Shown here in pieces: positions 650 to 1,851 of a stretch of DNA of 4,241 bases. The stretch is from Enterobacteria phage H19J. The translations under genes were made by a program, and so were the position numbers. The stretch lies in the sequence record AJ236875.1. The stretch is one strand, 5' to 3'. Numbering within the stretch: the stretch's first letter is position 1; the number at the start of each line of letters is the position of its first letter. The notes below the pieces were generated by a model, which was not told the DNA's origin, ran no database searches, and worked only from the letters and a program-made list of their open reading frames with translations.

Positions 650-1267
650 ATGACCACTATTACCAAAGAGCGACTACTGACAATCAAGCAGTGGCGCGAA
701 ACATACGGACCTGGTAGCAACGTTGTACTGCCAGCAGAAGAAGCGGAAGAACTGGCACGAATTGCTCTGGCATCGCTGGAAGCAGAGCCTATTGGTGAGG
801 TTTCAGAGAAGCGACTCGGCCTTGTTATGGATGGAACGGTAGACCTTGGCGGGAAATCAACTTATCGCATCATTAAGGGAGAAAAAGCGATGAAGTTGTT
901 GCCGCTGGGGACGAAGTTTTATACCGCACCGCCAGCGCCGATAGCGTTGGAGGCCATTGAAAATGCAATAGAATACATCCGCAGTATCGCTTTTCACATC
1001 GATGAAGACGATTACCACGGCAAACATATTGCGTATTTCATGCGACAAGCATTGGCCTGGCTGGAAGGGCATTCATGCAGTGATGACAGTCAGGGCAAAT
1101 CCGATAATTCACCATTGCCGCGCTACCAGGTGATCGAATTAACAATGCTGGTTAAACAATTGGTCAGCCAACTGAAAAAAGCAAAACCTGATTGCAAATT
1201 ACCTGATAGGGCGATGGATTATCTTTTGCGAAACGGACTGGTAAGTGCGGAGGATGTTTTACGATGA
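650..1267 (+). CDS. Hypothetical protein (205 aa), unknown function
   Basis: ATG at 650 preceded by AAGAGGA (637-643) with a 6-nt spacer. 618-nt ORF with enterobacterial-like codon usage; the stop overlaps the next start (ATGA at 1264-1267). No catalytic motif recognised. Confidence 0.8.
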   Translation: MTTITKERLLTIKQWRETYGPGSNVVLPAEEAEELARIALASLEAEPIGEVSEKRLGLVMDGTVDLGGKSTYRIIKGEKAMKLLPLGTKFYTAPPAPIALEAIENAIEYIRSIAFHIDEDDYHGKHIAYFMRQALAWLEGHSCSDDSQGKSDNSPLPRYQVIELTMLVKQLVSQLKKAKPDCKLPDRAMDYLLRNGLVSAEDVLR

Positions 1268-1851
1268 CCATTTCTACAAAAAAGCCTCTTTATGCTGAGG
1301 TTCACAATGTTCCTGATGATTATGAGTTCACTGACGAGGAACTAAACAGAATTATTGCAGGTGATATGTTCACTCCTCGTCAGGCCGCAATAATGGCACG
1401 GGAGATACAGAAACTCCGCGCCGCCATGCTTCATGGTGCCGAACCTGTAAGCCAAACTTACAAGTCACAACATACGCAGTTTGAACAAGTTGCTGACCTC
1501 TACGAAATGCAATTTGATGACGGTCGCACTTGTGCCTTTCACACTGATGCGCAAAAGGCTGCGCAATGGCTTCAGGCATGCGACGGAAACAGGGTTCAGG
1601 AATACGTGAAGCTGGAGCGATTGCGTAATGCGCTATCGGGCAACTCTCCGGTAACTCCGGATGGTTGGATATGCTGTAGTGAGCGAATGCCGGATAAGTT
1701 AATTCCGGTAATGGTCATGTATGAAGACGGTGAGATGTGGTCTGCAATGTGGAATGGCAATCGCTGGGATGATGGCACCGAATATCCGGATCCGCACTCA
1801 GTTACGCACTGGCGTGAAATGCCAGCAGCACCGCAGCAGGAGGTGAAGTGA
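1264..1851 (+). CDS. Phage protein with DUF551-like C-terminal domain (195 aa)
   Basis: ATGA start/stop overlap with the upstream gene indicates translational coupling. The C-terminal segment DGWICCSERMPDKLIPVMVMYEDGEMWSAMWNGNRWDDG...VTHWREMPAAP resembles the DUF551 pattern (W-I...ER-P...V...W...VTHW-x-P) as I recall it from enterobacterial prophage proteins. Confidence 0.8.
   Translation: MTISTKKPLYAEVHNVPDDYEFTDEELNRIIAGDMFTPRQAAIMAREIQKLRAAMLHGAEPVSQTYKSQHTQFEQVADLYEMQFDDGRTCAFHTDAQKAAQWLQACDGNRVQEYVKLERLRNALSGNSPVTPDGWICCSERMPDKLIPVMVMYEDGEMWSAMWNGNRWDDGTEYPDPHSVTHWREMPAAPQQEVK

Follow-up and report, generated by a model that had tools for sequence, protein, structure and literature searches.

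EaA-type mosaic genes in tandem at the distal early region of Enterobacteria phage H19J

Two adjacent open reading frames (ORFs) were analyzed in a 4,241-nucleotide (nt) stretch of DNA from Enterobacteria phage H19J (sequence record AJ236875.1). This whole stretch is referred to as the window, and all of its genes lie on the + strand in one co-oriented block. ORF1 and ORF2, which encode proteins of 205 and 195 amino acids (aa), had been presented in a preliminary description, made from the sequence alone, as a translationally coupled pair of accessory genes in the hypervariable cargo region between Ea22 and xis. Their location, their coordinates, and their ATGA overlap were recovered as described, and what had been missed is that both genes are module mosaics of the P22 EaA family. 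ORF1 and ORF2 are probably tandem EaA-family accessory genes that occupy the eaA slot of phage P22, have been put together by cassette shuffling, and encode non-essential early modulators with DUF551 as a binding domain. Positions of all features are collected in Table 1.

A tblastn search found P22 eaa (AF217253, 5509-6462; product EaA, 317 aa) to be homologous to ORF2, with ORF2 aa 70-190 aligned to EaA aa 191-316 at 41% identity over 126 aa (E 2e-27). For ORF1, the leader alone matched EaA (aa 1-48, 51% identity over 49 positions, E 4e-6). P22 EaA is made up of a leader, PF04447 (dATP/dGTP pyrophosphohydrolase; aa 83-179, E 1.2e-49), an M-like module, and DUF551 (aa 255-316). Given that the P22 gene order ead-eai-eaa-eag-eac-xis-int parallels the order in the window (Ea22-like gene, small ORF, ORF1, ORF2, DUF4752 gene, further genes, xis, int), ORF1 and ORF2 together occupy the slot of the single eaA gene of P22. 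The two arrangements are alike in operon position, in the ORF1-type leader, and in the ORF2-type M-like module with DUF551. P22 EaA differs in being a single polypeptide with a PF04447 center, whereas the window has two genes with cassettes B, C-D|N, and M, none of which was found in a known family. PF04447 was sought by Pfam in ORF1 and ORF2 and was in neither; it is an optional cassette of the EaA family, present in one of the best 150 representatives.

ORF2 is a complete small member of the EaA family, consisting of leader N, cassette M, and DUF551. It aligned to the full PF04448 model (positions 1-68 of 68) above threshold, and it therefore carries a true DUF551 domain rather than the DUF551-like one first proposed; ORF1 had no match to this model. 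The entry motif P-D-G-W-I-S-x-S-E-R-M-P and the exit motif T-H-W-x-x-x-P-x-x-P were both present, and among 43 relatives of differing DUF551 subtypes P129, W135, P143, and P190 were invariant and W183 and P187 nearly so. The protein is acidic (isoelectric point 4.9 and net charge -12 for the whole, isoelectric point 4.4 for aa 125-195) and is catalogued in RefSeq as WP_000156090.1, "DUF551 domain-containing protein". Its DUF551 subtype was also found in stand-alone proteins of 74-125 aa and fused to PF04447, while stand-alone DUF551 proteins overall measured 57-125 aa.

Structures were modeled using AlphaFold2 from shallow mosaic alignments (mean predicted local distance difference test scores, pLDDT, of 50.5 and 47.5), and the DUF551 part alone was usable (70-79). 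DUF551 was predicted to be mostly beta-strand and leader N to be helical. Foldseek comparison of the ORF2 model (pLDDT 70-79 in the domain, about 50 overall) with BFVD returned DUF551 models as top matches (E 1.9e-5 to 1e-3, template modeling score 0.6-0.8 on the target, root-mean-square deviation about 2 Å, 51-68 columns) from many phage types, virulent ones included. Comparison of the same model with the PDB gave nothing below E 0.2. A likeness to Sm/Hfq and Tudor barrels was discarded, as Foldseek E values above 0.2 are not evidence.

In ORF1, which is of EaA type, the place of DUF551 is taken by module D, a C-terminal module predicted to be helical; the membership of ORF1 in the family is suggested by the leader and the module-sharing network only. 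ORF1 was assigned to no family in Pfam, NCBIfam, or PADLOC, and Foldseek of its model against BFVD returned nothing. Its RefSeq entry is WP_001375782.1, and PHROG 660, to which it belongs, is a family without assigned function. Comparison of ORF1 with ORF2 gave no detectable similarity, so the two are not simple duplicates. Module A, the ORF1 leader, was common to P22 EaA and hundreds of other mosaic proteins, was the commonest module among representatives clustered at 50% identity, and gave module A-only DNA matches (about 132-148 nt, 95-98% identity) on E. coli chromosomes and plasmids where the surrounding sequence was unrelated. Compared protein relatives are numbered P#### and compared genomic loci L###; in relatives P0063 and P0103, modules A-B-C are followed by DUF551.

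The GGKST stretch of ORF1 (aa 67-71) had been called off-register for a Walker A motif, and this was confirmed. The protein reads G62-TVDLG-G68-K69-S70, one residue too long for GxxxxGK[ST], K69 is replaced by E (GGEST) in the close homologues P0031, P0053, and P0055, and the whole of module B is swapped out in other homologues. A P-loop nucleoside triphosphatase was rejected as a candidate because the motif is out of register and its lysine is not conserved among homologues. Separately, an ORF1-like protein at L008 (2114-2641) has a truncated DUF551 entry motif (PATPDDWISCSER) fused straight to module D, and this fusion is a visible scar of inter-cassette recombination.

Both proteins have a mosaic make-up in which modules of 45-70 aa meet at four conserved, proline-rich linkers (..SLEAEP.., ..YxAPPAP.., ..AMLHGAEPVSQTY.., and ..SGNSPVTPDGWISCSERMP..). 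Three of the four are DNA islands of near-identity amid unrelated flanks, and ..YxAPPAP.. was placed from protein breakpoints only. Modules were swapped at fixed linkers in alignments of the relatives, and BLAST breakpoints clustered at ORF1 aa 49, 101-103, 136, and 156-163 and at ORF2 aa 30, 52, and 103. At the DNA level, blocks of 88-99% identity with other phages stopped abruptly at linkers, and isolated islands of 34-55 nt were kept between otherwise unalignable flanks. At the island in 1416-1465, shared DNA blocks end and starts of high-scoring segment pairs cluster at ORF2 aa 52. Of 5426 complete E. coli genomes, 1346 contained the 63-nt DUF551-entry island (1632-1694), in 1853 places and up to 6 copies per genome, as compared with 66 genomes for the whole of ORF2. 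Genes hosting this island were annotated as DUF551, Ead/Ea22-like, or dATP/dGTP pyrophosphohydrolase, and their N-terminal parts were otherwise unrelated. As far as its distribution in sequenced genomes indicates, the island behaves as a recombination joint.

An exhaustive search recovered 894 clusters at 50% identity with some piece of ORF1. Within the best 150 of these, DUF551 was in the same chain in 32, and PF04447, Ead_Ea22, DUF4752, and Lar occurred once each. Module order in the census was always A, B, C or M, then D or DUF551, with D always C-terminal and N always N-terminal, and single chains running from A to DUF551 were common among the relatives. The frame of the family is an N-terminal leader, at least one interchangeable 45-70-aa cassette, and usually a C-terminal DUF551.

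The unit that is co-inherited appears, from shared DNA blocks, to be neither gene but the 510-nt C-D|N cassette, which runs from ORF1 aa 98 through the stop and start codons to ORF2 aa 62. Conservation of the junction was scored as D plus N (1115-1428), with genomes or contigs carrying any part as denominators. The junction was intact in 92 of 108 E. coli genomes, P1-like plasmids included, and in IMG/VR C-D lay directly upstream of N in 22 of the 26 loci carrying N, the junction being either ATGA or TAAcgATG. Around C-D|N (90-100% identity), modules A, B, and M and the DUF551 subtype varied. DNA blocks of the cassette were common to L001, L004, and L006, and it was also found in Salmonella P22-like prophages, in a P22-like E. 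coli prophage, and, in one phage, between replication gene P and the terminase. Because it is 90-100% identical everywhere, the block is a recently disseminated segment, and because it travels as near-identical DNA, persistence of the junction may only reflect the positions of recombination joints.

A block of an Ea22-like gene, a small gene, an ORF1-like gene, and a DUF551 gene was also seen to recur (L001 3089-5184, L004 2936-5172, and L010-L014). In P22-like prophages it adjoins abc2, and its small gene differs each time (63 aa, 171 aa, 72 aa).

The preliminary description had viewed the pair as a dedicated two-gene unit and expected it to co-occur in related prophages. Conservation of the junction across several phage backbones supports this in part, but at greater distance the partners separate and single-chain relatives are common. 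The gene after D in L007 is an unrelated one of 195 aa, and in L008 D has no coupled downstream gene; L015 has M plus DUF551 but no ORF1-like gene, and L040-L043 have N without D. L041 is a 380-aa single gene with N, a PF04447-like region (read by eye from near-identity to P22 EaA aa 83-179), and DUF551, and L043 is a single gene in which N precedes a zinc-ribbon-like region (likewise recognized by eye). Within the block, some ORF2-like genes are without DUF551 (L025, L032). Among divergent relatives, ORF1-like and ORF2-like genes thus did not co-occur whenever either was present, as an obligate two-gene system would. Full-length co-occurrence in E. coli (62-66 genomes) was set aside as uninformative because the matches are clonal; all listed matches (60 per search) were 100% identical and largely from O26:H11. 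Species-representative genomes of GTDB were scanned for the ORF2 leader and gave no confirmed locus.

At the gene junction, the ATG of ORF2 (1264-1266) lies over the TGA of ORF1 (1265-1267; ..cgATGAcc.. at 1262-1269). This overlap is not specific to ORF1-ORF2, as four successive junctions are equally tight; the others are Ea22-like/62-aa ORF (TGAgATG, 454-460), 62-aa ORF/ORF1 (TAAcccATG, 644-652), and ORF2/DUF4752 (TGATG, 1849-1853). Every gene of the tight run has a separate Shine-Dalgarno sequence, which for ORF1 is AAGAGGA (637-643). In the Salmonella version of the ORF1/ORF2 junction (GGAGGgggtTTAAcgATG) the stop is 2 nt ahead of the ATG (TAAcgATG), and Shine-Dalgarno sequences and stop/start spacing are kept across genera. 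Given that translational coupling is generic to this operon, it says little on the stoichiometry of this pair, for which stoichiometric co-expression had been read from the ATGA overlap. A programmed -1 frameshift fusing ORF1 to ORF2 was also considered and rejected: ORF2 does lie in the -1 frame, but the stop is not preceded by an X XXY YYZ slippery heptamer, the junction has another sequence in Salmonella, and none of 474 relatives is a single A-B-C-D-N-M-DUF551 chain.

ORF1 and ORF2 are real coding genes under purifying selection. Proteins identical to ORF1 and to ORF2 were each encoded on about 1000 contigs, and 11 of 22 substitutions against diverged homologues were synonymous where 23% was expected (binomial P 0.005). 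The ratio of nonsynonymous to synonymous substitution rates (dN/dS) was about 0.2-0.4 for the two ORFs overall; ORF1 gave 0.11-0.27, and the start of ORF2, where sites were few, gave 0.28-0.85.

Kinship extended to other known systems. DUF551 has been called a portable domain, occurring both in YfdS, a K-12 prophage protein, and in an Ea22 variant of Shiga toxin (Stx) phages (PMC10834534). YfdS, from prophage CPS-53 of E. coli K-12, shares DUF551 with ORF2 and both are prophage early-region genes; ORF2 differs from YfdS and other DUF551 proteins in its additional modules N and M, and ORF1 is without DUF551. YfdS is reported to affect H2O2 tolerance and, when it is overproduced with YfdQ and YfdR, replication initiation is inhibited (PMC4776307). 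Ea22 variants of lambda and Stx phages (V2 with DUF551) are alike in region and mosaic logic, and in the ORF2 relatives P0189 and P0208 the Ea22 coiled coil is fused to module M and DUF551. In the window, the Ea22-like gene lies two genes upstream of ORF1 with the 62-aa ORF between, and, in contrast to Ea22, Ead_Ea22 (PF13935) is in neither ORF1 nor ORF2. What has been shown for Ea22, namely that it forms tetramers and favors lysogeny (PMC7093339, PMC10834534), is not transferable to ORF1/ORF2.

P1-like phage-plasmids also carry EaA. The 285-aa P1 EaA ends in DUF551 and has 66% identity to ORF1 aa 1-163, EaA/Upf genes upstream of humD share cassettes, and an identical C-D|N junction was found on plasmids of 95-100 kb. 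The replicon and regulatory context of these plasmids are different, and both forms occur on them (EaA of MH422554 is a single chain, and pO103_CEC12044_1 has the two-gene form). The mention of EaA in a paper on Gifsy-1 is a passing annotation only and was discarded.

In searches for function, PDB sequence and profile searches with both proteins returned noise only (E at or above 0.3). PADLOC-DB v2 gave no match to ORF1, and the best ORF2 match had E 0.004 and 14 bits over aa 13-75 only. Neither protein had homology to a solved structure, defense model, or curated family that gives a function. Two earlier remarks were thereby upheld: no functional motif was assignable, the profile and structure searches returning no homology to a characterized protein, and no canonical defense enzyme was found, with no significant PADLOC, Pfam, or NCBIfam defense family. 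A consensus scan found no + strand sigma-70-like site upstream of or inside the pair, and a terminator/promoter scan found no internal promoter in or beside it. From these scans and from the position of the pair, transcription of both genes would be confined to the early operon once infection or induction has occurred, which argues against a lysogen role such as defense or exclusion. In lambda, early genes are silenced by the prophage repressor, and the ea regions of lambda and P22 are non-essential in model phages.

The mechanism proposed is that homologous recombination at linker islands would shuffle the cassettes. ORF1 and ORF2 would remain linked because the stretch bounded by the ..PPAP.. 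and ..AEPVSQTY.. linkers contains no recombination joint, and mutual need would not be required. They would be translated as part of a closely spaced series of genes that each have a ribosome-binding site. DUF551 may be an autonomous binding domain, small, acidic, and rich in beta-strand, by which variable N-terminal payloads (such as the dATP/dGTP pyrophosphohydrolase in P22 EaA and the Ea22 coiled coil in some Stx phages) are docked onto a host or phage target. The proteins would act as non-essential modulators of early development or host physiology, like Ea22, Ea8.5, and Orf63, and not as a defense or exclusion system. Neighboring genes of the exo-xis region have modulating effects on prophage induction and on the choice between lysis and lysogeny (PMC7093339, PMC3824215). 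The functional part (accessory proteins with DUF551 as docking domain) is put forward by analogy and with low confidence.

Several points weigh against this account. Recombination at linker islands was deduced from the positions of breakpoints, and conservation of D|N across four phage backbones fits selection for co-expression equally well. The promoter scan was a crude consensus scan, and the "small beta-rich binding domain" was taken from secondary structure and non-significant Foldseek matches of poor models. The functional part of the account draws on analogy with the neighboring exo-xis genes and on domain-fusion logic.

An alternative is that ORF1 and ORF2 form an obligate heteromeric pair, a split EaA in which an interface between helical D and helical N would rebuild the leader-to-DUF551 protein and the ATGA would give 1:1 synthesis. 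Consistent with this are the single-chain relatives that run from an ORF1-type leader to DUF551 (P0063, P0103, P0159, P0174, P0176, and P22 EaA), the co-inheritance of D and N counted above on lambda-like, P22-like, P1-like, and other backbones, the tight spacing that survives loss of the overlap in Salmonella, and the prediction that D and N are both helical. However, near-identity of the block points to recent spread and does not attest independently to co-selection, N begins single genes of eaA type that have no D gene upstream (L041, L043), D has another downstream gene or none (L007, L008), DUF551 is missing from L025 and L032, and coupling is generic in the operon; a split protein is thus considered unlikely. 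The cassettes might instead be arms-race effectors, that is, inhibitors or decoys against host defense or rival phages, with linker-guided shuffling under diversifying selection. This would suit the extreme combinatorial diversity (the 894 clusters), the early-operon site beside Abc2 (anti-RecBCD) and Lar-like genes in related phages, one relative fused to a Lar restriction-alleviation domain, the acidity of ORF2, and the dATP/dGTP pyrophosphohydrolase of P22 EaA, an enzyme class linked to restriction evasion (PMC10834534). Set against these, there was no similarity to a known anti-defense protein or PADLOC model, dN/dS within cassettes (0.1-0.4) is purifying and not diversifying, whole-module swapping is typical of all lambdoid non-essential regions, and the reported YfdS phenotypes concern oxidative stress and replication initiation, not defense (PMC4776307). 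An effector role of this kind is accordingly doubtful.

Two small overlapping genes in a cargo region also resemble many two-gene defense or toxin-antitoxin layouts, and the pair could be a prophage-expressed defense, superinfection-exclusion, or toxin-antitoxin system acting in the lysogen. This is extremely improbable, given that there is no significant PADLOC, Pfam, or NCBIfam defense or toxin family (best E 0.004, 14 bits) and no upstream + strand promoter-like site, that the genes are embedded among co-oriented abutting early genes silenced by the prophage repressor, that the GGKST stretch has neither the register nor the conservation of a Walker A motif, and that the partners separate freely in relatives. 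It is very unlikely, too, that the ORFs are decaying or functionless filler hitch-hiking between recombination joints. Although the region is non-essential in model phages, the neighboring DUF4752 gene is frameshifted in the window, and truncated alleles exist (L025, L032, L008), both frames are intact and identical on about 1000 contigs, there is a synonymous excess with dN/dS below 1, and Shine-Dalgarno sequences and stop/start spacing are conserved across genera. A broader proposal is that the EaA locus is a linker-guided cassette-shuffling system, with the islands as dedicated joints and DUF551 as constant anchor, combined with a C-D|N split-protein interface and a payload aimed at host defense or replication. 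It is regarded as quite improbable; if it were true, linker-guided shuffling would yield hundreds of early-protein combinations around the DUF551 anchor.

The window was 99.9% identical to the Stx1a-converting phage Stx1a_11KH263 (LC744179), and the ORF1-ORF2 segment (650-1851) was 100% identical to E. coli O26:H11 genomes, for example those of strains 11368 and H19. Its xis, int, and attP are of HK022 type, and the window is the distal end of the pL operon of an Stx1a phage of E. coli O26:H11. By comparison with lambda, the + strand of the window runs in the direction of the leftward early (pL) operon. The slot of the 62-aa ORF holds unrelated small genes in other phages, and comparison of this ORF with P22 eaI gave no similarity.

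Table 1. Features of the H19J window
Feature	Position	Strand	Evidence
Ead/Ea22-like gene, C-terminal part (cut at window start)	31..456	+	PF13935 E 4.5e-12; phrog_29036 E 1.6e-53
62-aa ORF, variable slot between Ea22-like gene and ORF1	458..646	+	phrog_6161
ORF1, 205 aa, EaA-type mosaic without DUF551	650..1267	+	phrog_660 E 1.8e-40; UniRef "Eaa protein"
ORF1 module A (aa 1-47), EaA-type N-terminal leader (MTTITKE...ARIALASLEAEP)	650..790	+	51% identity to P22 EaA aa 1-42, E 4e-6; alignments, BLAST breakpoints, DNA blocks, module census
ORF1 module B (aa 48-97)	791..940	+	Alignments, BLAST breakpoints, DNA blocks, module census
ORF1 module C (aa 98-155)	941..1114	+	Alignments, BLAST breakpoints, DNA blocks, module census
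ORF1 module D (aa 156-205)	1115..1264	+	Alignments, BLAST breakpoints, DNA blocks, module census
C-D|N cassette, 510 nt, ORF1 aa 98-205 + ORF2 aa 1-62, stop/start inside	941..1450	+	Conserved block
ORF2 Shine-Dalgarno GGAGGA (1249-1254), 9-nt spacer, ATGA stop/start (1264-1267)	1249..1267	+	
ORF2, 195 aa, EaA-family: leader N, middle module M, DUF551 part (aa 125-195)	1264..1851	+	P22 EaA homology; RefSeq WP_000156090.1
ORF2 leader N (aa 1-58)	1264..1437	+	
Linker island (RAAMLHGAEPVSQTYK), putative joint between cassettes	1416..1465	+	Isolated 48-50-nt matches, 98% identity, in unrelated genes
ORF2 module M (aa 63-124)	1450..1635	+	
Linker island (LSGNSPVTPDGWICCSERMP), DUF551 entry, 63 nt	1632..1694	+	Genome matches
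DUF551 domain (PF04448), ORF2 aa 134-191	1663..1836	+	E 3.3e-17, 63.5 bits vs cut-off 22
DUF4752 gene, frameshifted in window	1851..2130	+	PF15944 E 5.4e-13 on 2014-2127
103-aa zinc-finger ORF, C4 pattern	2277..2588	+	phrog_3680 E 2.5e-69; weak ClpX-type zinc-finger match E 0.015
55-aa ORF	2624..2791	+	
xis	2831..3049	+	
int (attP follows downstream)	3027..4100	+	

The DUF4752 gene is intact (92 aa) in O26:H11 strain 11368 and in LC744179. Its frameshift in the window comes from one extra A at 1930 (CTTAACAGG vs CTTACAGG), which may be a true inactivating mutation or else an error made in sequencing an old clone. A second insertion peculiar to the window, an extra T at 2133 (within 2128-2160), breaks a cysteine-rich mini-ORF of 30 codons; strain 11368 has this mini-ORF open (MMWPICVNCGRMCLSGWCRKCDKCTKKRQ), and it is unannotated in RefSeq. 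GAATTC forms both window ends (1-6 and 4229-4234), and the window therefore looks like a cloned EcoRI fragment. At the right end, the HK022 match continues to about 4218 and divergence from the integrated prophage LC744179 begins after 4184 (attachment core); since the phage attP arm is kept there, the source was phage DNA and not prophage DNA. A GC-rich hairpin with a T run at 2781-2800, between the 55-aa ORF and xis, has the position of the tL4 terminator annotated in HK022 record X51962. Scans of the window for Rfam families and repeats found no RNA family and no meaningful repeat.

For phage biology little changes, as these are catalogued RefSeq proteins of a known phage family in a region already published as mosaic. 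ORF1 and ORF2 are ordinary members of the EaA/DUF551 family and not a special two-part system, and the unnamed "hypothetical protein" ORF1 is now placed in the EaA network. Since the inherited unit, as read from shared DNA blocks, straddles the gene boundary, adjacency or an ATGA overlap in such regions is weak evidence of a functional pair. About one complete E. coli genome in four carries the entry linker of DUF551, and in related phages this region has an influence on Stx-prophage induction; DUF551 is the constant element that is worth structural and interaction study.

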